Part shown: piece by piece, positions 3,458 to 19,444 of the stretch
Layout: every line of letters begins with the position of its first letter
Numbering within the stretch: the first letter of the stretch is position 1
Source: Erysipelotrichaceae bacterium
GTDB lineage: Bacteria > Bacillota_I > Bacilli_A > RFN20 > CAG-826
Direction of reading: 5' to 3'
DNA length: 64,000 bases
Assembly: GCA_963588055.1 (NCBI GenBank)
Contig: CAVAGB010000008.1
Coordinates: 11,622 to 75,621, forward strand
Position numbers and translations under genes: made by a program
Notes under the pieces: generated by a model
Databases searched by the model: none
What the model was told of the DNA's origin: nothing
What the model saw: the letters and a program-made list of their open reading frames with translations, nothing else

Positions 3458-4249
3458 CTAACGGATCTGCTGTTTCTTCTCCGCGATGATGTCGAGCTCC
3501 ATCTGGTAATCGAAAGCCCAGTCGTAGCTCTTGCAGAAGCTCCCGTTGTAATTCCCCTCTCCCGTCTTCAGGAAATCCCAATAATCGCAGACGACTTTGC
3601 TTTTGTTGATCCTCAGCTGCGCCCTGGAGAAATAGACGCAGTCGATCTTGTATTCCTCTAAGGTCTTCCTAAGCCGCCAAACCGCGTCGCGATAGAGCCT
3701 TTTGGCGTTTTCCAACGGAGCATCAGGCCAAAGCTGGGAGATCGCATCGCTCATCTCCAGGGCCTTGCCGTTATAGGCAAGGAGCAAAGCCAAAAGCTCT
3801 TTGCTCTTCGCGCTGGAGAAGCGGATGGGCCTAGAGTCGATGAAGCAGTCGAAGCTATTGAACATCTTCGCCTCCAACAGGGTGCAGTTGTTTGCTATCT
3901 CATCCACGTAGCGCTTCACCTCGGCGAAGGAATAGGGCTTGTAGATGAAGCCGGCTACGTTGTCCCTAATCTCACAAGGCAGGTCGTCCATGCCGACTTT
4001 CACCCCGGTCACGAAGACGATCCGGATATCCTTGTTGAGCGTGGCAAGCTTCTTGGCTAGGGATATCCCATTGATGCCAGGCATATTGACGTCGATGAAG
4101 GCGGCGGTGACGTCGTTATGCTTCACATAGTCGAGTATTTGCTTGGCTTCGTCCTTGAAGAAGCGGCATTCGAGGTTGTCCAAAGAGACGATCTCCTTGA
4201 GGAAGATCTGCAGCGAGGATATCTCGTCGTCAATCGCGATTACTTTCAT
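3458..4249 (-). CDS. two-component response regulator, REC + SARP/OmpR-type winged-helix output
   Basis: REC motifs (MKVIAIDDE, DVNMPGINGI, VFVTG). C-terminus KSKELLALLLAYNGKALEMSDAISQLWPD...WRLRKTL. GGAGGGG SD. Start overlaps the kinase stop by 20 nt. Confidence 0.8.
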   Translation of the reverse strand: MKVIAIDDEISSLQIFLKEIVSLDNLECRFFKDEAKQILDYVKHNDVTAAFIDVNMPGINGISLAKKLATLNKDIRIVFVTGVKVGMDDLPCEIRDNVAGFIYKPYSFAEVKRYVDEIANNCTLLEAKMFNSFDCFIDSRPIRFSSAKSKELLALLLAYNGKALEMSDAISQLWPDAPLENAKRLYRDAVWRLRKTLEEYKIDCVYFSRAQLRINKSKVVCDYWDFLKTGEGNYNGSFCKSYDWAFDYQMELDIIAEKKQQIR

Positions 4250-6116
4250 CTTGCCCCTCCTTCTCCTTGGGGATGGTTATCTTGATCCTGGTCCCGAAGC
4301 CGAGCATGGAGCTCACCTTGACCTCGGCCCCAAGGAGCATCTGATATCTTTCCTTCACGTTGCGGATGCCTTGGGAGTCCTCCTTAATGAGGCTGGGGTC
4401 GAAGCCCATTCCGTTATCGTCTATCTCTATATAGATATAGGAATCGTCCTGGCGGGTGGAGATCTCTATCCTCCCGCCTTCTTTCTCATTCACCTTGCTG
4501 TATTTGATCGCGTTCTCGACGAAGGGCTGGATGGACAAGACGGGGACTTGGAAATCCTGGACGTCGATGTCGTAGATCAGATTGAATTTCCTCTCGGTGC
4601 GGAGGTTCTTGAGCTCGACGTAGTTGTAAACGTTGTCCAATTCCTTCTCGAAGGCGATGAGGTTCGAGGTGACGGCGTCGACGTTGTAGCGGAGATGATC
4701 GGCCAGCATGGTGACCGCCTTATCCCCCGTCTCCTCGTCCTCATGGTAGAGCGCCTTGATGGCGCTTAAGCAGTTGAAGACGAAATGGGGCTTGATTTGG
4801 TTGCGCAGGACGAGCAGCTTCAGGTCTTTGTTCTGCAGCTCGGTCTTCAGCTCATTCATCGCGTGGCGGTAGGTCCTGACGATGAAGGCGACGTAGATCG
4901 CGATGAAGAGGGCGATGATGAGGAAAAGATAGACCAAAGCGGGGACGATCGGCGAGGAAGAGAACCCTCTTAAGGAGGAAGAGGCAAAGCAAAGCTCCAT
5001 CCCCATGATGGAATAGAAGACGCATTTGGTGAAGATCCCCGTGATGTCGAACTTGTTCTTCAAATGCGAGAAATAGGTGATCTTGACCATGATGGAGACG
5101 TAGACGATGAGATAGGCGGAGAAGGCGATGATCTCTAGCCTCAAGGGAAGGAGGCAAGCGAGAAGAATGGGCGCAAGGGCGATGGAAATCGCCCCAATGG
5201 CCTTGCCCTTCTTCTTCAGTTGGGAGAGGTAGGTGAACTGGTAGAACTGCAAGACGGAGAAAAGGAACAAAGCGAAGAAAGCAAAGCCCAAGACGGAGAA
5301 TATCCAAGGAGGCAAGAAGCAGCCGAAGCCCAAGAGGATGTTGTTGAACAATGGCGAGAAGAGGGCCATGAAGAAGATCGAACCCGCCATGTTGACCGTG
5401 TAGATTGTCGAGTCGTAGATCCTTAGATAGGAAACGAGCTCGACGACGAAGAGGACCAAATAGCAGACGAGGGCGATGTAGGTGAAGGAAGAAGAGACGC
5501 TGCTGTCCAAATCGTGATAGGAGACGTTGGTGAACTCCGGAGAGAAGGAAAGCCCGCCGACGAAGTTGTATCCGACCTCGATCATCACTTCCGCTTCACC
5601 CGTCGATTGGGCTTGATAGACCTCATCTAGCTCATAAACATGCGGCAAGGAGCATTCCGAAAGGGTTCTGCCCACTTTGCCGGCGCTGGCGATCTTGCTG
5701 CCATTGACGTAGACGGACAGGCTCACGTTGGAGGCCTCTTTCCTGAAGGTGATCTTGGTTCCGCCAGAAAGGCTGATTGTCGTTCGATAAGTGGCGCAGC
5801 CATCCAAAGGGAGGGAATCCCCGCTTCTTGTCTTCACGTTGAACCAGGAACGAGGCAAACTCATCTCCGCGTCGGGCTCAGAGGAAGAGGCGGGGACGCC
5901 CTCGCTCACCAACAGTTTGCCGTAATAAAGTTCCCAAACGCCCGAGGAGCTTTTCAGGACCGTCTCCTCGTCGCTAGGGCGGCTAGCCTCGCTTAGCGAG
6001 GTGAGAAAACATGTAAGGACCCCCCCGCAAAAAGCAGGACGTAGAGGGTGATTTGCAGAGCTTTGAGCAGATGCTTTTTCATCTTCAACCCTCCCGCATC
6101 TTTCCTTGCTAGCCAT
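4230..6116 (-). CDS. sensor histidine kinase, LytS/YesM-type (His_kinase + HATPase_c), multi-TM with extracytoplasmic N-domain; N-terminus apparently frameshifted
   Basis: QIKPHFVFNCLSAI, IQPFVENAIKYS, DDNGMGF and GIRNV motifs, with about 7 hydrophobic segments. ATG 6116 has no SD. A GGAGGG-preceded ATG at 6082 encodes a signal/TM peptide in another frame and is separated from the main frame by a G7 run (6020-6026). Confidence 0.8.
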   Translation of the reverse strand: MASKERCGRVEDEKASAQSSANHPLRPAFCGGVLTCFLTSLSEASRPSDEETVLKSSSGVWELYYGKLLVSEGVPASSSEPDAEMSLPRSWFNVKTRSGDSLPLDGCATYRTTISLSGGTKITFRKEASNVSLSVYVNGSKIASAGKVGRTLSECSLPHVYELDEVYQAQSTGEAEVMIEVGYNFVGGLSFSPEFTNVSYHDLDSSVSSSFTYIALVCYLVLFVVELVSYLRIYDSTIYTVNMAGSIFFMALFSPLFNNILLGFGCFLPPWIFSVLGFAFFALFLFSVLQFYQFTYLSQLKKKGKAIGAISIALAPILLACLLPLRLEIIAFSAYLIVYVSIMVKITYFSHLKNKFDITGIFTKCVFYSIMGMELCFASSSLRGFSSSPIVPALVYLFLIIALFIAIYVAFIVRTYRHAMNELKTELQNKDLKLLVLRNQIKPHFVFNCLSAIKALYHEDEETGDKAVTMLADHLRYNVDAVTSNLIAFEKELDNVYNYVELKNLRTERKFNLIYDIDVQDFQVPVLSIQPFVENAIKYSKVNEKEGGRIEISTRQDDSYIYIEIDDNGMGFDPSLIKEDSQGIRNVKERYQMLLGAEVKVSSMLGFGTRIKITIPKEKEGQDESNRD

Positions 6117-6393
6117 TATACACGCGCATTGGGCTGCTCGGTCCTCGGGGAATGAAAAGGGCGGCCCATTGCGTGGAAACGATTAACCCAATAACGAGGC
6201 AAAACGGAAGCTCAGACTTGTGCGTAATACGTAGCCTTTATACCTTCACATCTTTTACAGTTACGTTTATCACAAAATTAAAAAAGCGCGATGCCACAGG
6301 ATCTTTTAACGTATCACGCAAGTTCAAAAATGTAGCATAATTGCCCTATTCCGAGATTTTTCATCTGCCTCAACTTATTTTTACGACTTTGCC

Positions 6394-6445
6394 TTCATCT
6401 AGAAAATGCAACTAAACTAGGTATTTTTCATTTAGAAAATGCAAC
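6394..6445 (+). repeat. 19-bp direct repeat x2 (TTCAT[C/T]TAGAAAATGCAAC), second copy contains the ATPase start codon
   Basis: Copies at 6394-6412 and 6427-6445 with 1 mismatch and a 33-bp period. ATG 6439 lies inside copy 2. Copy 1 opens a 4-codon mini-ORF (ATG CAA CTA AAC TAG). Confidence 0.85.
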
Positions 6446-7803
6446 GGAGACGTGCTACGCCATTCAAAAGAAAGATCTATCAAAAACTTCTCGACTGGAA
6501 AAAGAATCCCCACAAGAACAGCGCCCTTCTCATTGAAGGCGCCAGGCGCGTCGGCAAAACGACCATTGTCCAGGAGTTCGGTGAGAAAGAGTACAACGAT
6601 CACATCTACATCGACTTCACTTACGCGAGGGATGAGGCCAAAGACCTCTTCAAAAGGGTCCGCCCCTGCGATAAGAAATCCATGGATCTTTTCTTCTCCG
6701 ATCTTTTCCTGATGTATGGGAAAGAGCTTCACGAAGGAGACCTCATCATCTTCGATGAGATTGAGCACTGCCCTTTGGCAAGGCAAGCCATCAAAGCATT
6801 GGTCCAAGACGGGAGATTCGACTACATAGAGACCGGTTCTCTCATCAGCATAAGGGAAAATGTGGCGGGGATTCAGATCCCGTCCGAAGAGAGGCGCATC
6901 GAGATGCATCCGATGGATTTCGAGGAATTCCGTTGGGCCATGGGGGATGAGACCTCCTGCGAATTGCTCCGCAAAGCGTTTCTAGAAGGCGCCCCCATCA
7001 GCTTTGCGGTCCATCAAAAGATGATGGACGATTACCGCCTCTATCTTTCCTTAGGCGGGATGCCCCTTGTCGTCGCGACATATCTAGAAAGCAACTCTTT
7101 CTCCTCCGCTTCCGAGATCAAGAAGGATATCTGCAAGCTCTACGTCGACGATTTGAGGAAGCACGACAACCAATGCGGCACTTCGTGCCTATCCATCTAT
7201 CAGTCGATGCTTGCTTCCCTCCGCTCCTGGTCGAAGAGGGTGAAGACCGGTATCCGCAGCGAGGGGGAGAAACGGAAATACATCCGTTCCCTAAGCGATC
7301 TGAAGGACTCGCGCATCGTTAACTCCGTCCACCAGTGCAAAGATCTGAGCTTTGGGAACCTCGTCGAAGAGGAGACCGCCTTCAAGCTCTATCCCTTGGA
7401 CGCCGGGCTCATGCTTGAGGAGCTGCTTGGCGAAAAAGGAGTTTCAAGCGAGGAGGCCTATCGAAAAATACGTTTCGGAAAACTAAGCGGGGCAAATCTA
7501 GGCTTGCTTTACGAATGCGCGGCTTTGGAGGCTTTATCGGCCAATGGGCACACCCTTTATTACCACACCTTCCTTTATGGCGAGGAGGGGAAACGATATG
7601 AGCTCGACTTTGTCGGCTATCTGAAGGGGAGGCTGACCGCGATTGAGGTCAAAAGCACGAACCGCTTCACCACTTCTTCCTTGGACGCGCTGCCTTTGAA
7701 ATACCCTCAGCAAACCATAGACCGCGTCGTGATCAGCCCAAAGCCTTTTTCTAAAGCAAACAGCATCCTCAACTTGCCTCTTTATCTGACTTATCTGCTT
7801 TAG
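6439..7803 (+). CDS. AAA+ ATPase with C-terminal DUF4143/PD-(D/E)xK-like domain (COG1373 type), paralog 1
   Basis: Walker A GARRVGKTT, Walker B LIIFDEIE, C-terminal YELDFVGYLKGRLTAIEVKS. No obvious SD. Confidence 0.75.
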   Translation: MQRRRATPFKRKIYQKLLDWKKNPHKNSALLIEGARRVGKTTIVQEFGEKEYNDHIYIDFTYARDEAKDLFKRVRPCDKKSMDLFFSDLFLMYGKELHEGDLIIFDEIEHCPLARQAIKALVQDGRFDYIETGSLISIRENVAGIQIPSEERRIEMHPMDFEEFRWAMGDETSCELLRKAFLEGAPISFAVHQKMMDDYRLYLSLGGMPLVVATYLESNSFSSASEIKKDICKLYVDDLRKHDNQCGTSCLSIYQSMLASLRSWSKRVKTGIRSEGEKRKYIRSLSDLKDSRIVNSVHQCKDLSFGNLVEEETAFKLYPLDAGLMLEELLGEKGVSSEEAYRKIRFGKLSGANLGLLYECAALEALSANGHTLYYHTFLYGEEGKRYELDFVGYLKGRLTAIEVKSTNRFTTSSLDALPLKYPQQTIDRVVISPKPFSKANSILNLPLYLTYLL

Positions 7804-12622: not shown

Positions 12623-13873
12623 TCAAAAACGCTTCCCTTCTTTTATGAAATCCATCAGGTTCGCGTGGATGATGCCGTTTCTTTTCTGCGTGATTGAGTC
12701 AGTGGTCAGCAGATAGCGGGGATAACTATCCCAGGTGATGCTTTCAAGGCTGCGATACTCCCTCTCTTCCGTCTCCTCGGAGGAGAAAATCGTGTAGGCG
12801 ACTTGGACGTAAGAGTAATCGTTCTCTTTGCTGCGCATGATGAAGTCGCATTCGAATTGTCCGACTTTGCCAATGCTTATTGAATATCCTAGCCCAGCGG
12901 CATAGGTGAAAACGATGTTTTCCAAGGCCGGCCCGAAATTCACGCGATTATCCGTGCTGGTTGCGTAGTAGAAAGAGAGATCGGAAAGATAATATTTCCT
13001 CTCGCTGCCGATTGCTCGGCGCGTTTTAAGATCGAACCAGCGGCACGGCATAACGATTTTCGCGCTTTCCAAGGCGTCGATGTAGCGCCTTACCGTGACC
13101 GCTTTGGTAGCGATGCCTTTGCTTTTGAGGGCATCCACGATGTTGGATACGCTGATCGCTTTCCCGAAATTGCCGACTAGATAATTCATGACGGAGTCGA
13201 AAACCTCGCGGTTTCTGATCTGGATTCTCCTTTTGATGTCCTTTTCGTAGATTTCCGAGATCAGATTTCTCACGTATTCCCTTTTGGGTGCGAAATCATC
13301 GAGCTTGACCGCATAAGGGAAGCCTCCCTCCAGGATAAAGTTCTTCAGTTCTGTCAGATTATCCTGCGAAACAGGCTTGTGGAAGTGCTCCTTGGCGAGC
13401 AGGTATTCATCGAAGGACAGGGGCAAAACGCTGAATTCAATGTATCTTCCCGTGAGTTTGGTGATCAACTCCCCGGAAAGCAAATAAGAGTTGGAGCCTG
13501 TCACGAAAATGGAGAAGTCCCCTTCCTCTCTCCATCCGTTGATCACCTGCTCAAAACCTTCGACGTTCTGCACCTCGTCGATGAATAGGTATTTGACCCC
13601 TTCAGCCGTGGCGTGTTCTTCGATTAGCTTGTCAAGCTTGTCGGGAGTGTCTATCCCGCGATAGGGCCTTTTGTCCAAATTGAAGAAGAGGATGTTGCTT
13701 TCGTTCACGCCCGAGGCGAGAAGTTCCCTAGCGATTAAAGTCAAAATGGAGGATTTTCCAGAACGCCTTACTCCGGATAAGACTTTGATGATCTCGCATT
13801 CATGGTAAAAGCTTCGTATTTCCGATAAGTATTTTTCACGCGCGAATAAATCAGTAGAAAGGTCAATTAGCAT
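12623..13873 (-). CDS. AAA_14 ATPase with DUF4143 domain, paralog 4
   Basis: TTG 13879 replaced by ATG 13873, which has GGGAGGAAG 7 nt upstream. Walker A GVRRSGKSS, Walker B YLFIDEVQ. C-terminal FECDFIMRSKENDYSYVQVAY, a degenerate nuclease-like triad. Confidence 0.8.
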   Translation of the reverse strand: MLIDLSTDLFAREKYLSEIRSFYHECEIIKVLSGVRRSGKSSILTLIARELLASGVNESNILFFNLDKRPYRGIDTPDKLDKLIEEHATAEGVKYLFIDEVQNVEGFEQVINGWREEGDFSIFVTGSNSYLLSGELITKLTGRYIEFSVLPLSFDEYLLAKEHFHKPVSQDNLTELKNFILEGGFPYAVKLDDFAPKREYVRNLISEIYEKDIKRRIQIRNREVFDSVMNYLVGNFGKAISVSNIVDALKSKGIATKAVTVRRYIDALESAKIVMPCRWFDLKTRRAIGSERKYYLSDLSFYYATSTDNRVNFGPALENIVFTYAAGLGYSISIGKVGQFECDFIMRSKENDYSYVQVAYTIFSSEETEEREYRSLESITWDSYPRYLLTTDSITQKRNGIIHANLMDFIKEGKRF

Positions 13874-13911
13874 TTCCAACTTCCTCCCTAGGAAGTATAC
13901 ATCAAAAAGGT

Positions 13912-14024: not shown

Positions 14025-15689
14025 CTACCGGCCCTTCTCCATGACCATCTCTTTCGCGTATTCCCTTTGCTTCTCGGTGATCTTGCCGTTGGAGATGAGG
14101 TTGGCCACCGCGTCGATCTTCTCTTCCAAGCCCAGCTCATGGATGGAGGTGCTCGTCCTGCCGTCTTTGACGCTTTTCTCTATGAGGAGGGCGTGGTCAG
14201 AAAGGCAGGCGACCTGCGGGGCGTGGGTGATCGCGATGACCTGGGTGGATAAGGAGATCTCGTAAATCTTGTTCGCGACGGCTTTGCTGGCTTCGCCTGA
14301 GATCCCCGTGTCGATCTCGTCGAAGATGGCCGTGCCGACTTTGTTGGAAGAGAGGAAGATCGAATGGAAGGCAAGCATGATGCGGCTGGTCTCCCCTCCG
14401 GAGATGATCTTCTCCATCGGTTTGAGCCCCTCCCCCACATTGGTCTCCAAAAGGAACTGGACCTCGTCTATCCCGTCTTCTTTCAAAGAAACCGGATCCT
14501 TCTCTCCGAGGGAGAAAGAGATTTTGAACTCGTCGCGGAGCAAGAGGTCCTTGAGGTTCTTCTTCATGCTCTTCTCGATGAGGGAGGCCACTTGCTGCCT
14601 GATTTTGGAAAGATCAACCCCTCTTTCGTAAGCTTCCTCGAAAGTATTGTCGGCTTGAAGCCTTGCTTCCTCTAGATCCTCTTCGAAGGTCGAGCCTTTC
14701 CCTAGCATCGACTCGAGCTCCGCCTGATAGGAAATGAGCTCAGGGATGGATTTGCGGTACTTCCTCTCCAAAGAGGAGAGCTCGCTGTCCCTTTGCTCGA
14801 GCTCCTCTAGCCTCGCGGGATCGTAATCCAAGGAGGAGAAGAGGCCTTTCAAAGAGGAGAAGATGTCCTCCAATTCGTAATAGGCATCGTCTAAACGCTT
14901 GCTTGATTCCTGGTATTGGGATTGGAAAGAGACGAGTTTTGCGACGTTTTTGTTGAGATCGTAGAGTTTTTCGATGGCGTCCCCATGGACGATCGAAGAA
15001 GAATCCTGCACGAGGGAATAGATGGAGTCGTAGTTCCTGAGGAGGGAGATCTCGTTTTCGATCCTCTCTTGCTCCCCTTCCTCTAGCCCCATCCCTTTGA
15101 GCTCGTTGTATTGGTATTCGTAGAAGTCCCTTTCGGATTCAAGCTTCTCTTTCTTCGCCTTCAGTTCCTCGTAATGGGCTTGCTTCTGCCTGTAGGAAGA
15201 AAGGGACGTGCGGTAGCTCTCAAAATAAGACGCCACCATGGAGGGGCGGTAGGAATCGATGAGGGAGAGATAGTTCTCGGGATTGAGCAGTTTCATCGCG
15301 TCGAACTGCGAATGGATATTCGCCAGAAGAGGGGCAAGGCGAGAGAGGTCGCCCAAGGAGATCATCGTCCCATTGGCTTTGATGTAGCTTTTGGTTTTGC
15401 CGATGACCCTCTCGATGGTCAAAGATCCATCGAAGGGAACGTTAAGTGAGGATAAGAGGGCTTCCAACTTAGGGGAAGAGGCTTCGAATTCCCCGCGGAT
15501 CGTGGCTTTGCTCTCCCCTTGGCGGATGAGTTCGCTTGAAGCTCGCTGCCCCAAAAGCAAAGACAAGGAATCAATGACGAGGCTTTTGCCAGCGCCGGTC
15601 CCGCCCATCAAGACTGTAAAGCCGTTTTTGAAAACGATGTCTACGTTTTCTAGGATGGCAAGATTAACGATGGAAAGGCGTTTGAGCAT
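14025..15689 (-). CDS. recN: DNA repair protein RecN
   Basis: 554 aa. N-terminal GGTGAGKSLVIDSLSLLLGQRA, long coiled-coil middle, C-terminal ISGGETSRIMLA and FDEIDTGISG. Confidence 0.9.
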   Translation of the reverse strand: MLKRLSIVNLAILENVDIVFKNGFTVLMGGTGAGKSLVIDSLSLLLGQRASSELIRQGESKATIRGEFEASSPKLEALLSSLNVPFDGSLTIERVIGKTKSYIKANGTMISLGDLSRLAPLLANIHSQFDAMKLLNPENYLSLIDSYRPSMVASYFESYRTSLSSYRQKQAHYEELKAKKEKLESERDFYEYQYNELKGMGLEEGEQERIENEISLLRNYDSIYSLVQDSSSIVHGDAIEKLYDLNKNVAKLVSFQSQYQESSKRLDDAYYELEDIFSSLKGLFSSLDYDPARLEELEQRDSELSSLERKYRKSIPELISYQAELESMLGKGSTFEEDLEEARLQADNTFEEAYERGVDLSKIRQQVASLIEKSMKKNLKDLLLRDEFKISFSLGEKDPVSLKEDGIDEVQFLLETNVGEGLKPMEKIISGGETSRIMLAFHSIFLSSNKVGTAIFDEIDTGISGEASKAVANKIYEISLSTQVIAITHAPQVACLSDHALLIEKSVKDGRTSTSIHELGLEEKIDAVANLISNGKITEKQREYAKEMVMEKGR

Positions 15690-15894
15690 AGCGAGATCAT
15701 TATACGAGGGTTAGGAAACTCTTTGCTTCGAATTGGCCTGGTTTTCGGTATCAGCATTTCAAGGAAATCGTTCTTCTCTTTGTAAGATTTTTGCAGATAA
15801 AAACGGTTTTGCTGTTTTTATTTTTACTTCAAGTGTTATCTTTGCTATATTTAAGGTAATTAAACGCGCTTAATGTGGGTTTAAGACAAAATAT

Positions 15895-17061
15895 ATGAAA
15901 TTATTAAGAACCGTCGTCTCCGGATTGCCCTTATTTGAGAAGAGCTGCTGCATTGATTTCTTCGCTTCGCAGCGCGTCAGCGAAGAAAACGAGGAGCATA
16001 TGGGCCTTTTGCTAGCAAACGGAGGGGCGAAGTTCTATCAGAACAACGTCCTCTCTTTCGCCGGCATAAACGCGTCTGGGAAAACAACCGTCCTGAAGTT
16101 GATCTCATTCGTATGCTCCTTGCTTGCGAACGAGCCGTTAAACGGCAATGCCTATCCCGAGGTTTTCGATGGATTGAAAGACGACGAGGAGGCCGTTTTC
16201 GAGTCTTCTTTCCTAAGCGGGGCTTCCGTCTATCTGCTGCGAAGCGCCATAGCCAAAGAAAACGGCCGCTTGGTCATCAAAAGCGAATCCCTCAGAGAGA
16301 AAAACGCCAACAGGATAAAAACGAAGAAGGATCTTTTGGAATTGTCCGATTGCAAAATTGTGTTAGCAAGAGACGCGGACGAACCTTTCTTACTGGATGA
16401 TGTGAGCATCATGGTTGCGTTCAACAAAGCGAGCAAAGACGTCGTTTCCTTCTGCGATTTGCTCCATTACACGAATGCCAACGAGCTCAGCATCTCCTCG
16501 GATTGCCCAGGGGAATTGATCGCCTTCTTCGATCCGAGCATCGAGCATCTTCGCATCCGCCAGGAAGGCAAAGAAAGCCGCATCGGCTTGAAATTCAAAG
16601 GGAAAGAGGAAATCGTTTTGAGCCGACTTGCCGAATTGAATCGTTATCTCTCTTCCGGGACCATCAAAGGCATCAACGTCTTCTTAGCCGCCATAAGGAC
16701 TTTTCAAACCGGAGGATACCTCATCATCGATGAGCTTGAGAATCACTTCAATCACGAAATTGTGTCCACTTTGGTCAAGTTCTACATGGATAAGAAGGTG
16801 AACCCCCGCGGCGCGACTTTGCTTTTCTCCACCCATTACGCCGAACTGTTGGATGAGATGGCCAGGAACGACAACATCTACATCACTAAAAACGACGGAG
16901 GCATCAACGTTACGAAGCTCACATCCCTCCTAAAAAGGAACGACATCAAGAAAAGCGATGCTTACGAAAGCGGATATCTTGATGGCACCGCCCCTCAATA
17001 TGAGGCTTATATGGCCCTAAAAAAGGCCTTTGTGAAACAGGCCAAGGAAGGTGAGAGATGA
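15895..17061 (+). CDS. ABC-type ATPase of the AAA_15/AAA_21 class (AbiLi/RloA/AriA-like)
   Basis: Walker A GINASGKTT, signature-like LSSGTIKG, Walker B YLIIDELENHFNH, H-loop LLFSTHY. Stop overlaps the next ATG (ATGA). Confidence 0.7.
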   Translation: MKLLRTVVSGLPLFEKSCCIDFFASQRVSEENEEHMGLLLANGGAKFYQNNVLSFAGINASGKTTVLKLISFVCSLLANEPLNGNAYPEVFDGLKDDEEAVFESSFLSGASVYLLRSAIAKENGRLVIKSESLREKNANRIKTKKDLLELSDCKIVLARDADEPFLLDDVSIMVAFNKASKDVVSFCDLLHYTNANELSISSDCPGELIAFFDPSIEHLRIRQEGKESRIGLKFKGKEEIVLSRLAELNRYLSSGTIKGINVFLAAIRTFQTGGYLIIDELENHFNHEIVSTLVKFYMDKKVNPRGATLLFSTHYAELLDEMARNDNIYITKNDGGINVTKLTSLLKRNDIKKSDAYESGYLDGTAPQYEAYMALKKAFVKQAKEGER

Positions 17062-17580
17062 AGCTTACCAAATATGTCGCCTGCATCTACGAAGGCTCGG
17101 CGGAAAGGGCCATCCTCGAGCTGCTTTTAGAGGCGAATAAGCTGATTTTCACCTGGGACGATCTTCTTGAAGGTGGAGTTGATCAAATGCCGAAGCGCGA
17201 AGAACTTCGAAGCGCAATACCTGCGCAAAGGGTTTCGCGACAAAATTACCGTCGTACGAGTGCTCGACTCAAGGAACGAGGTCTTCAAATTGAGCAAAGC
17301 CTATGAGCACAAAGTCGGGGTGATAAACATCGTCACCGCCCCGGAGATAGAGATGCTGATCATCCTCAGCGAAGGAAAATACGCGGAATACAAAAAATCA
17401 GGGAAGAAGCCAAGCGATTTCTGTAAAGAAAGCCTGAGGTTAGGAGCGGTCAAAAATTACGCTTTCGTGAAAGGCTATTTCTCGAATATCGAACGTTTGA
17501 TGTTCTCAATCAACGAGTACCAACGAATTTCTAAGATCCCCCAAGGGGAATATACGCTCAAAGACATCATCAGGAAATAG
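17058..17580 (+). pseudogene. RloB/AbiLii-like small Toprim-type partner, split by a +1 frameshift near 17160-17175
   Basis: Frame A (17058-) gives MKLTKYVACIYEGSAERAILELLL...TWDDLLEG and then junk. Frame B (open from 17146) gives ELIKCRSAKNFEAQYL...VRVLDSRNE...IVTAPEIEMLIILSEGKY, where EG-x2-E and PEIEML resemble RloB motifs. Removing one G in GGTGGAG restores a roughly 174-aa protein. Confidence 0.55.
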
Positions 17581-17605
17581 ATTCGACCGTGCGGAAACGC
17601 ACCGA

Positions 17606-19396
17606 TCAAAGGCGCTTCAAGTATTCGGATACGTTGAGATACTGCACCCCATTCCTAATTGTCGTATCTTCGCCGCGATACAAAACGAACTTGCCGACGA
17701 TTCTGCCGAATGACCTCTCCACCTCTCGGCAGCGCTTCTCGTTGACGATGTGCCGATACTGATTGGGGTCCTGCGCTTTGCTGTGCTTAATCTCATAGAT
17801 ATTGCACTCATATGTGGACTTATCCATGGTGACCATATCGAACTCCCCATCAATGAACTCTAGTTTGAACACCTCGTGAGTCTTTTTCAGTTTTCGCATC
17901 GTCTCGTATAAAACAATCTCCTCCAGCATGCCACCTTTCACCCCATCTAAGATCTTCTCGCAGACATAATCCTTCTCTTTTTCGCTCAGGGTCGAAAAAA
18001 GCCTGTCTTTCTTCAAAGAGAAGACCAAAGCTTCGGCTTGGCAGTACCTCATGCCGGGTTGAGTAAAAAGGACGTTCTCATCGCCTTCGCTTTCTTTCGC
18101 CCCCAAATACCGCACAGGGCATTTTTTAATCAGCTCAAGCGCTTGGAGGTATTCTTTGATCTCCCGAACGTGCTCTTCGCTTAAAGGAACGCTTAGCCCG
18201 CTTTCGTTTTTGATTTCAAGAATCTCCATCAAACGCTTGACCACGGCCTCTTCGTCGATGCTCTCCAAGGCTTTCGATCTCAGATTTGGGTCTCTCTCCT
18301 TAAGGAGGTTTTTCTTCGCCAAGCCTAGGTCATGCGACCTGAAATCCTCCTCCAGCACGCTGACGAGGAAACGGTGATTAAGGTCTTCAATGATGCGGTT
18401 TATCGCGCTAGTGAGCTCCCCGGCCTCATAAAGCTCGGAAAGCTTTCTGAAATGCGAGCCTCCCTCAAAGCACTTGAGGCTGTGCTGGATGTTACCGCAG
18501 ATTGAAGTATCGATGTATCTCCGCGTGCTTTCGTCGTCGCGGAAAGAAATGGATTCGTCCTTCAGCTCCTCATCGTCGAAGTCGTTTTCTCCTGCCCTTA
18601 AAGTTCCCCCGTAACGAATGTAGGCATCGATGTCATCGGTCCCTAGAAGACGGGAATGCTCCGCGAAGGGAATCCAAGTCGTATGGATGAGGCAAGAACG
18701 GTCATAGAGCTCGTTTCTGCTCGCGAGATAAATGCCCAAGGAGTCAGTGCTGGAAAGGACGATTCTCATTCCCATCGCCGCGTAGATGTCAGAAAGGAGT
18801 GAGGAGGTGTCGATGAAATCATCCATCAAAGTGGCTTCGTCAATGAAGACGTATCTATATCCAAGCTGACTCAGCTTCTGAAGGTCGGAGTCGAGCATCG
18901 CCATCCTTTCTCCTCTTCTCATCTTGATATAGGCCGACTTGGCGAAATCAGAAGGTTTCATGTCCGCGATCGCCTGCAAAAGCAAAGTGGTCTTGCCCGT
19001 TCTACGGAGGCCATAGACGGAGCAGACCCTTGGCGAAGAGGGGCCGAAGATAAACTCTTGCAAGGCTTTGTAGCAATCGCGCTTTTGAAACGTTTTGGTA
19101 GGAAGGACCAATTGTTTCAGCGCAGCGCCGCGGATGACCTTCGTCTCAAACGTTTCCGAAAGTTCGACGGCGCAAGTTAATTTCAAGGCCTTCAATTCCT
19201 TTTCCAATTCCCTCCTCTTTTTCACATCCTTCTCAATCTGTTCGAAATCTTCGTCTGGGATGTAGCGGCTCTTCGTTTTCCCTTGCTCGCTCCATTGCAG
19301 ATAATGGCGAACCTTCCCGCTTATCTTCTTCTCCGAAATGCAGCCTTTCGGAAGGACCGCTATCTGCTTTCTCAGTTCCTCAATCGTTTTCTTCAT
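17606..19396 (-). CDS. large AAA-type ATPase, paralog 5 (N-terminal extension, C-terminal D..E-x-K-like motif)
   Basis: TTG 19423 replaced by ATG 19396 (MKKTIEEL). Walker A GLRRTGKTT, Walker B YVFIDEAT, C-terminal GEFDMVTMDKSTYECNIYEIKHS. Confidence 0.65.
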   Translation of the reverse strand: MKKTIEELRKQIAVLPKGCISEKKISGKVRHYLQWSEQGKTKSRYIPDEDFEQIEKDVKKRRELEKELKALKLTCAVELSETFETKVIRGAALKQLVLPTKTFQKRDCYKALQEFIFGPSSPRVCSVYGLRRTGKTTLLLQAIADMKPSDFAKSAYIKMRRGERMAMLDSDLQKLSQLGYRYVFIDEATLMDDFIDTSSLLSDIYAAMGMRIVLSSTDSLGIYLASRNELYDRSCLIHTTWIPFAEHSRLLGTDDIDAYIRYGGTLRAGENDFDDEELKDESISFRDDESTRRYIDTSICGNIQHSLKCFEGGSHFRKLSELYEAGELTSAINRIIEDLNHRFLVSVLEEDFRSHDLGLAKKNLLKERDPNLRSKALESIDEEAVVKRLMEILEIKNESGLSVPLSEEHVREIKEYLQALELIKKCPVRYLGAKESEGDENVLFTQPGMRYCQAEALVFSLKKDRLFSTLSEKEKDYVCEKILDGVKGGMLEEIVLYETMRKLKKTHEVFKLEFIDGEFDMVTMDKSTYECNIYEIKHSKAQDPNQYRHIVNEKRCREVERSFGRIVGKFVLYRGEDTTIRNGVQYLNVSEYLKRL

Positions 19397-19414
19397 TGCG
19401 TTCGTTATCTTTCT

Positions 19415-19444
19415 TATAACCAATTATAACCAATTATAACCAAT
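19415..19444. repeat. perfect 3 x 10-bp tandem repeat TATAACCAAT
   Basis: Read directly. Lies 19-48 nt upstream of ATG 19396 on the minus strand. Confidence 0.95.

Follow-up and report, generated by a model that had tools for sequence, protein, structure and literature searches.

An AbiLi-like ATPase gene with a frameshifted small partner in an Erysipelotrichaceae genome: a probable chromosomal copy of a widespread two-gene module

Results

In a first-pass annotation of a 64,000-nucleotide stretch from an Erysipelotrichaceae bacterium (contig CAVAGB010000008.1 of assembly GCA_963588055.1, positions 11,622 to 75,621; this whole stretch is called here the window), positions 15895 to 17580 were read as a two-gene module in which an ATP-binding cassette (ABC) ATPase is followed by a small, Toprim-like partner with a broken reading frame. 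The analysis presented here confirms that the partner gene (gene 2) is split by one extra base, and places its product in a large family of short proteins that accompany the same type of ATPase (gene 1). All the features of the module lie on the forward strand and are as follows.

15895-17061, +: gene 1, ABC ATPase, AbiLi-like, intact, 388 aa (matches to Pfam AAA_21 and PADLOC AbiLi)
16063-16089, +: gene 1, Walker A GINASGKTT, aa 57-65 (located in the translation, as are the next three)
16648-16662, +: gene 1, ABC-signature-like LSSGT, aa 252-256
16717-16740, +: gene 1, Walker B YLIIDELE, aa 275-282
16828-16839, +: gene 1, H-loop STHY, aa 312-315
17058-17061, +: ATGA stop/start overlap, translational coupling (gene 1 TGA at 17059-17061, gene 2 ATG at 17058-17060)
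17058-17174, +: gene 2, 5' part, codons 1-39 in frame 0, with the E12-G13-x-x-E16 motif at 17091-17105
17172-17178, +: frameshift site GGTGGAG, one G more than in intact relatives (comparison with contigs L001, L048 and L047)
17176-17580, +: gene 2, 3' part, codons 40-173 in the +1 frame plus TAG (17578-17580)
17266-17268 and 17335-17352, +: gene 2, 3' part, D70 (followed by E74) and T93-x-P95-E96-I97-E98, respectively, with the C-terminal helical region behind them (family alignment)
15823-15851, +: promoter-like site TTTACT-17-TATATT, TG-extended, 44 nt 5' of the ATPase start (consensus scan)

Promoter-like sites were no commoner in this region than in shuffled sequences, and the last entry is a positional suggestion only. 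The ATGA overlap and the four ATPase motifs had been named in the first-pass annotation and were all found. The assignment of the ATPase to the AAA_15/21 class also held: the protein matched Pfam AAA_21 (PF13304) at 56.6 bits (E 5.5e-15; gathering cut-off 27), and its best PADLOC match by far was the AbiLi model PDLC02335 (E 3.3e-36, 123 bits), followed by AriA (PDLC02980, E 3.9e-15) and by the HEC-01A, PDC-M07A, PDC-M25A, GajA and PtuA models (E about 1e-8 to 2e-3; HEC-01A about 4e-8). PHROG 5836, of function unknown, matched at E 3e-35, and 5153 homologues were retrieved. A housekeeping ABC transporter was considered as the identity of gene 1 and rejected, since the NCBIfam transporter and ABC-F models scored 11-19 bits against cut-offs of 200-700, which excludes a housekeeping ABC role. 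No close solved structure was found for gene 1 by sequence, SMC heads appearing only at E about 0.01. Judged by these profile matches, gene 1 is an AbiLi/AAA_21 defence-class ATPase.

Frame 0 of gene 2 reads MKLTKYVACIYEGSAERAILELLLEANKLIFTWDDLLEG and then 43 unrelated codons up to a stop at 17304-17306. The +1 frame reads ELIKCRSAKNFE...APEIEMLIIL...KDIIRK (also ELIKCRSAKNFEAQYL...VRVLDSRNE...APEIEMLIIL) and ends at the TAG at 17578-17580. Removal of any single base from the GGTGGAG site yields a 173-aa product and a stop; thus, the one-G deletion proposed in the first-pass annotation does restore the protein, but its length is not the predicted 174 aa or so, and the site lies at 17172-17178 rather than at about 17171-17177. 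The read-through protein had 1033 homologues at E <= 1e-3, of which the best 120 were nearly all of 172-176 aa, with 95-100% query coverage and 62-95% identity. All homologues inspected read ...DDLL(E/D)(G/E)E(L/I)(I/L)(K/R)CR... without interruption over the break point. The 82-aa frameshifted product had no record elsewhere. On these comparisons the two parts form a split gene far beyond chance.

The nucleotide sequences at the break allow a closer description. Against GAA GGT G GAG TTG in the window, P0001 of contig L001, which is the closest relative (95% identity), carries GAA GGG GAA CTG. L001 and a second relative, L048, share the sequence GAAGGGGAACTG at this site and are both intact, encoding ...LLEGELIKCR. 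A third contig, L047, reads GAAGGGGGAGTTG, with GGGGG; it has the same additional base as the window and a G where the window has a T. The frameshifted form of the site is 16 nt long, GAAGGTGGAGTTGATC (also written GAAGG(T/G)GGAGTTGATC), versus 15 nt in the intact form. Neither the JGI metagenome contigs nor the GTDB genome contigs gave a match in exact-pattern scans for the frameshift site. No additional stop or indel was present in the +1 frame over the 134 codons 3' of the shift, and the ratio of nonsynonymous to synonymous substitution rates (dN/dS) against L001 was 0.106 downstream of the shift, 0.038 upstream of it and 0.069 for the C-terminal half of the ATPase. Since the shift at codon 39/40 separates E12 and E16 from D70, E96 and E98, neither fragment could be active.

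L047 is a Logan contig (run SRR13434628) found by exact-protein look-up of the ATPase, and it was informative on the origin of the break. It is 99.65% identical to window positions 14743-18434, with 12 mismatches and one intergenic indel. None of the differences falls in the 1167-nt ATPase gene and five fall in the 523-nt partner gene, a distribution for which we calculate a chance of about 0.003 if the five single-nucleotide polymorphisms (SNPs) were placed at random over both genes. Of the five, L24I and P95T are replacements specific to L047; L24 is kept in at least 90% of close relatives, and P95 is invariant among close relatives and reaches at least 90% conservation across the wider family. 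Because, of the two genes, only the partner carries SNPs, and these include the two replacements, the pattern fits relaxed selection on a dead partner gene. The simplest history suggested by the sequences would be a G4-to-G5 slip in the ancestor GAAGGGGAG, followed by a G-to-T change in the line of the window. Judging from the low downstream dN/dS and from the +1 frame free of further stops and indels, the break is young. The two relatives at about 95%, L001 and L048, are intact, and L048 lies at the same chromosomal locus with the gene order of the window (AAA_14 genes, recN, ATPase, an intact partner of 173 aa, AAA_14, GDSL lipase and aldose epimerase). In a genome of the same genus (G318, locus L038) an intact pair is likewise followed by the GDSL lipase gene.

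These data bear on whether the frameshift exists in the organism, on which the first-pass annotation had left two explanations standing, an inactivated effector and a base-calling error. We believe it very likely that the frameshift is real, inherited and common to the window and a sister strain (L047), and that gene 2 is a recent pseudogene. It is improbable that the module is intact and functional and that the extra G came from sequencing or assembly, or from a minority variant that became fixed in the consensus. Such an error would be in keeping with a metagenome-assembled genome (MAG) of 89 contigs, and would suit the lack of decay in the out-of-frame part, in which dN/dS is low and extra stops are missing. 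Moreover, a sensor-kinase gene of the window also seems to be thrown out of frame by one base, at a G7 run (6020-6116, - strand; open reading frame, ORF, 4230-6116), where the frame with MKKHLLKALQITLYVLLFAGG (signal- or transmembrane-like) ends after 29 codons and the long ORF goes on in the adjacent frame; this may be a true second break or a phase-variable tract, and on its account some assembly indel noise is possible. It also weighs against our reading that the L047 sample may be related to the source of the window genome. However, L047 was assembled independently and has the same +1 length with a different base (GGGGG versus GGTGG) and 11 other SNPs, and an extra base common to two non-identical haplotypes disfavours an artefact. 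Likewise, L24I and P95T in L047, next to an identical ATPase gene, are not what an intact module would be expected to show, and the site in the window is not a homopolymer.

Still less probable, in our judgement, is that the break is a regulatory device, either a reversible G4/G5 slippage or a low-level +1 ribosomal frameshifting by which a toxic effector would rarely be made. The G5 run of L047 against G4 in the intact relatives at about 95% would suit slippage, and effector genes of this module class are repeatedly broken, with nonsense codons in 3/80 species-representative copies. Nevertheless, typical phase-variable tracts are longer than G4-G5, and in the window the T that interrupts the run (GGTGG) would keep the gene permanently off. 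Conserved slippery or stimulatory motifs are missing, and most family members lack a G run at this site altogether, reading for example GAAGAACGT or GATGGTGAG; programmed frameshifting of gene 2 was rejected because the site is not conserved in the family. The other broken copies are nonsense mutations at differing codons, which argues for decay rather than a shared switch, and P95T in L047 points to lost constraint. An inherited, recently acquired inactivation is thus retained in what follows.

To characterize the partner, conservation was measured over 99 diverse members of its family. E12, G13, E16, L23, D70 and E98 were invariant, and R67, T93, P95, E96, I97, L100, P118 and K132 reached at least 90% conservation. 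Four positions after D70, the aligned N-terminal domains have a further acidic residue, E74 in the close subfamily and D in most distant members. The AlphaFold2 model built with the family alignment (predicted local distance difference test, pLDDT, 91; predicted template modelling score, pTM, 0.87) consists of an N-terminal alpha/beta domain (strand 6-11, helix 14-25, helix 47-54, strand 63-69, strand 86-88) and a C-terminal helical bundle (helical region 96-170). E12 is located just past strand 1 and D70 just past strand 63-69, and E96 and E98 start the helix after the third strand, a predicted layout of acidic residues that suits a metal-binding catalytic site.

No database used here names this protein. 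The gene 2 pieces, the read-through protein and its 95% relative found no credible match in Pfam, PADLOC, NCBIfam or PHROGs, the family profile matched no PDB sequence, and the source records of the homologues, where they give a name, say "hypothetical protein". A profile search collected 1085 clusters at 50% identity (707 at E <= 1e-10), mostly of 165-195 aa. These comparisons indicate that the partner belongs to a shorter, undescribed and database-unannotated family, in line with the suggestion in the first-pass annotation of a short and possibly undescribed variant (its members here having 172-173 aa).

A pattern scan confirmed 381 loci of the close subfamily among GTDB species representatives, mostly in gut and rumen Clostridia (Lachnospiraceae, Oscillospiraceae, Ruminococcaceae), and the cultured isolates with a partner include Agathobacter ruminis, Dorea acetigenes, Roseburia porci and Gemmiger formicilis. 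Some partner-bearing bins are labelled Prevotella, Muribaculaceae, Selenomonadaceae or Spirochaetaceae. Eight loci (L053, L094, L097, L098, L103, L121, L122 and L127) hold copies 58-66% identical in bins labelled Prevotella, Muribaculaceae, Bacteroidaceae, Sulfurovum and Escherichia coli. These eight represent either transfer across phyla on mobile elements or binning contamination. Six cluster representatives (P0242, P0245, P0247, P0253, P0264 and P0267) begin with one identical N-terminal partner sequence, MELAKYKACICEGSAEE..., and pass into unrelated tails from differing points, the tail of P0267 ending in a tyrosine-recombinase-like C-terminus; such sequences may stem from truncation, from insertion or from chimeric contigs of an element that is very abundant.

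The partner is also broken in other genomes. In-frame stops were found in the three species-representative copies mentioned above (L082, L124 and L070), whose upstream ATPase ORFs stay long. In L082, the cultured Agathobacter ruminis JK623, S71 is replaced by a stop, and in L124 it is L69, both in the conserved L-D-S motif; the stop of L070 is near codon 163.

The association of the two genes was consistent. The DNA 5' of the partner was long enough to be judged in 71 loci. In 70 of them the partner follows directly on an ORF of at least 300 aa, with spacings from a 14-nt overlap to an 18-nt gap, and one has no long ATPase ORF upstream. In the loci of nine relatives (22-84% identity) the ATPase lies directly 5' of the partner in all nine. 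The genome of the window itself carries an intact paralogous pair on contig C18 (16800-18546; locus L004, 1495-3241, minus strand), in which a 411-aa AAA_21-like ATPase overlaps a 178-aa partner that is about 33% identical to that of the window and has the same EGxxE, D and PExE motifs. This paralogous module may still work.

The surroundings of the pair are variable. In one abundant variant, carried by conjugative elements, it is placed between a type IV secretion system coupling protein/Toprim_2 primase and a MobL relaxase; a 69%-identical pair with this placement (loci L005-L009, positions 4838-6522) is cargo of a conjugative or mobilisable element and occurs in at least 24 contigs from different samples. 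The window module adjoins recN, an adjacency not kept at other loci. Flanking repeats and RNA elements were sought at the module and none was found. The copies on conjugative elements, the presence of a partner (any family member) in 10/36 other genomes of the genus, and a G+C content of 47-48.5% in the module versus 51% in the window give the module the signature of mobile accessory cargo.

The relationship of the partner to known small effectors was then examined with the 99 family members scanned singly. The PADLOC AbiLii model matched 5/99 (best E 9.1e-5) and Pfam OLD-like_TOPRIM 7/99 (best 0.013); RloB (0.001), DUF4276 (0.029) and the HEC-01B models (0.036) matched one each, and other families never went beyond two chance-level matches. 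For comparison we used 22 canonical AbiLii-like proteins of about 200-245 aa from genomes of the same class, 20 of them directly behind an ATPase of 377-472 aa. DUF4276 (PF14103) was dropped as a comparison family, being present in 1/301 genomes of the class. Aligned by hhalign, the partner family and the AbiLii-like set had their motifs in order (nominal pairwise P 0.009), pairing ciCEG-AE with i-EG--TE, RIlDS with vfD-D, and T-PEIEiLiI with SnPcFEiWlLlH. When each set was scored with the hidden Markov model (HMM) of the other, the real sequences scored above their composition-matched shuffles (30-fold) whichever HMM was used (nominal Mann-Whitney p = 9e-11 and 3e-6), and reversed sequences did not exceed the shuffles; kinship within each set inflates these significances, but which way the effect goes is clear. 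Over their full length (about 165 residues), two bridging members, P0282 and P0351, can be aligned to the AbiLii-like HMM with the three motifs and the C-terminal helices in register. Finally, a Foldseek search of the viral structure library BFVD returned a "RloB-like protein" at the top by both probability (0.63) and TM-score (0.42), with E 0.04.

Several results weigh against this kinship. The hhalign probability for the same pair of alignments is only 4.5%. At E <= 10, the window partner and P0001 matched none of Pfam RloB (PF13707), DUF4276, DUF4435 and OLD-like_TOPRIM, the first three being the profiles proposed for the repaired protein in the first-pass annotation, and nothing among PADLOC AbiLii, AriB and HEC-01B, NCBIfam or PHROGs. 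DUF4435 was also missing from the 25 most-matched families among the 99 relatives, and the AbiLii model PDLC02337 found no match in the genome of the window. Foldseek against the PDB gave no match below E 0.04, either with the full model or with a less confident model of the N-terminal domain predicted on its own (pLDDT 75.6); the leading matches were generic flavodoxin-like folds, and the OLD nuclease 6nk8_A came at rank 47 with a TM-score of 0.38. In addition, the second Asp of the Toprim DxD motif is not conserved in the family, which has D70-S71 instead, with E or D at +4.

The Toprim-like, RloB-type label given in the first-pass annotation is, consequently, only partly upheld: bridging members, motif order and the low-probability hhalign alignment speak for it, whereas the protein has no profile match of its own and no significant Foldseek match to Toprim. 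PADLOC gave a similarly divided answer, with AbiLi matching the ATPase and no model matching the partner. The label is weakly supported by these comparisons and provisional, and the partner is not assignable to RloB or AbiLii as those families are now defined. With somewhat better than even confidence, we take the family to be a branch of the AbiLii/RloB superfamily that is compact and has diverged strongly.

Discussion

AbiL, RloAB, PARIS, OLD and Gabija have been classed together as Toprim nucleases that work with ABC ATPases of the AAA15/21 type (PMC11464382; PMC13064643), and such pairs constitute a major theme of bacterial immunity for which few mechanisms are known. AbiL of Lactococcus lactis (AbiLi plus AbiLii, a PADLOC model) is the system that most invites comparison. 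As in the module described here, its two genes are co-oriented and coupled, and the ABC ATPase comes first; further common points are the AbiLi profile match reported above and a weak colinearity of the partner with AbiLii-like proteins, in which EGxxE, D and PxxE are in register. The differences are in the second gene, which the AbiLii and RloB profiles leave unmatched and whose product has 172 aa instead of about 200-245, shows neither the basic N-terminal tail nor the TE..YF signature, and has D-S in place of DxD. The ATPase is also shorter (388 aa versus about 400-470). What was known, then, is the architecture and the ATPase, which place the module beside AbiL; by the same sequence criteria, what is new is an effector outside every family profile that differs in size and in one catalytic motif.

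Other systems resemble the module more loosely. RloA/RloB of Campylobacter (PF13707) has the same layout of an AAA_21-type ATPase and a small Toprim-like protein, and is linked to the family by one member with an RloB match and by the best BFVD neighbour by probability, but the window protein and 98 of the 99 sampled relatives reach no RloB score. PARIS (AriA plus AriB; PDB 8UX9; PMC11464382) similarly joins an ABC ATPase sensor to a separate small nuclease effector, and the AriA model matches our ATPase; however, AriB is a DUF4435 Toprim of about 35 kDa, whereas the partner is of about 20 kDa and has no DUF4435 signal. AriA itself has insertions and forms a hexamer. HEC-01, a PADLOC candidate (HEC-01A ABC ATPase plus Toprim-like HEC-01B), has a similar compact ATPase and small-partner layout, but AbiLi fits the ATPase far better than HEC-01A does and HEC-01B finds a single relative. 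In the OLD nucleases and in GajA of Gabija an ABC ATPase is again paired with a Toprim-type domain, echoed in the family by the seven weak OLD-like_TOPRIM matches, yet there the domains are fused in one polypeptide and the fold comparison was not significant.

Altogether, we favour, with reasonable though far from complete confidence, the interpretation that this locus holds, on the chromosome, one copy of a module that is widespread and uncatalogued and consists of an ABC ATPase and a small nuclease-type protein, of the class of AbiL, RloAB and PARIS, with its effector broken by the extra G and a mechanism to be understood by analogy with PARIS. PARIS is the only relative whose mechanism has been worked out and serves as our model. 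In it, the AriA hexamer keeps AriB inactive until a phage trigger causes its ATP-dependent release, upon which AriB dimerises and cleaves host tRNA-Lys (PMC11464382). By this analogy we infer both the defence role and the nuclease activity of the partner family. An oligomer of the 388-aa ATPase would be the keeper and the sensor of a phage cue, with the small protein held inactive. An ATP-dependent release would free a metal-dependent, Toprim-like nuclease, the 172-aa toxic effector, which would cut nucleic acid, possibly tRNA, so that the infection is aborted. The helical C-terminal half of the effector is a candidate docking or dimerisation surface. In the lineage of the window, the effector is very probably dead and the ATPase is kept, and this copy of the module is presumably non-functional because its effector is broken. 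Loss of the effector would be a harmless route of decay, since losing the keeper first could be lethal; the proportions of partner copies with nonsense codons (3/80) and of loci without a long ATPase ORF (1/71) fit such a route, although the numbers are small.

A different function for a genuine pair has to be weighed against this. The two genes might form no anti-phage nuclease system at all, and serve instead as a toxin-antitoxin that stabilises plasmids or integrative and conjugative elements, or as a DNA-repair accessory, the small protein being a non-catalytic adaptor or another enzyme. The window module does stand beside recN, and many copies reside on conjugative elements, between the coupling protein/primase and the relaxase, where addiction modules are also common; moreover, the partner has neither a significant structural match to Toprim nor a family profile. 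We nevertheless regard this function as unlikely, if somewhat less so than an artefactual frameshift. The recN adjacency is not conserved at other loci, and the AbiLi defence profile is by far the best match of the ATPase. Nearly all invariant residues of the partner are acidic, and they lie at or just past strand ends, as expected of a metal-dependent catalytic site, and the weak signals that come from several directions point only to AbiLii, RloB and OLD-Toprim. The patchy distribution (the 10/36 genomes of the genus) and the variable context are, in turn, typical of defence cargo.

A broader proposal, to which we give an even chance, is that the 172-aa proteins are a distinct minimal effector family that, together with a shortened AbiLi-like ATPase, makes up an anti-phage system missed by the catalogues, and that the repeated effector knock-outs reflect a cost of self-toxicity. 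If true, the system would span at least 381 species, chiefly Clostridia of gut and rumen, and be carried often on conjugative elements, with about 1100 clusters at 50% identity, and the knock-outs with the ATPase kept (the window, L047 and the 3/80 species representatives) would be the trace of that cost. The locus itself directs attention to a compact and very common branch of such ATPase pairs in gut and rumen bacteria and their conjugative elements. Because Pfam, NCBIfam, PADLOC and PHROGs leave the effector unnamed, censuses of defence systems will undercount the module. Since the putative active site (E-G-x-x-E, D-S, P-E-x-E) departs from the Toprim DxD, the chemistry or the target of the effector may differ from those of AbiLii and AriB. 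An effector of about 170 residues with a confident predicted fold is tractable, and could show the minimal needs of ATPase-gated nuclease immunity. For annotation, the copy of gene 2 in the window is best recorded as a recent pseudogene, the C18 paralogue being intact.

As to the neighbouring genes, AAA_14/DUF4143-type ATPase genes flank the window module on both sides (12623-13879 and 17606-19423, both on the - strand). Genes of this type are also found within a few kb of the module in an unrelated Oscillospiraceae MAG (L010/L011). Their proximity could be a recurrent association or could simply follow from their abundance in gut Firmicutes.

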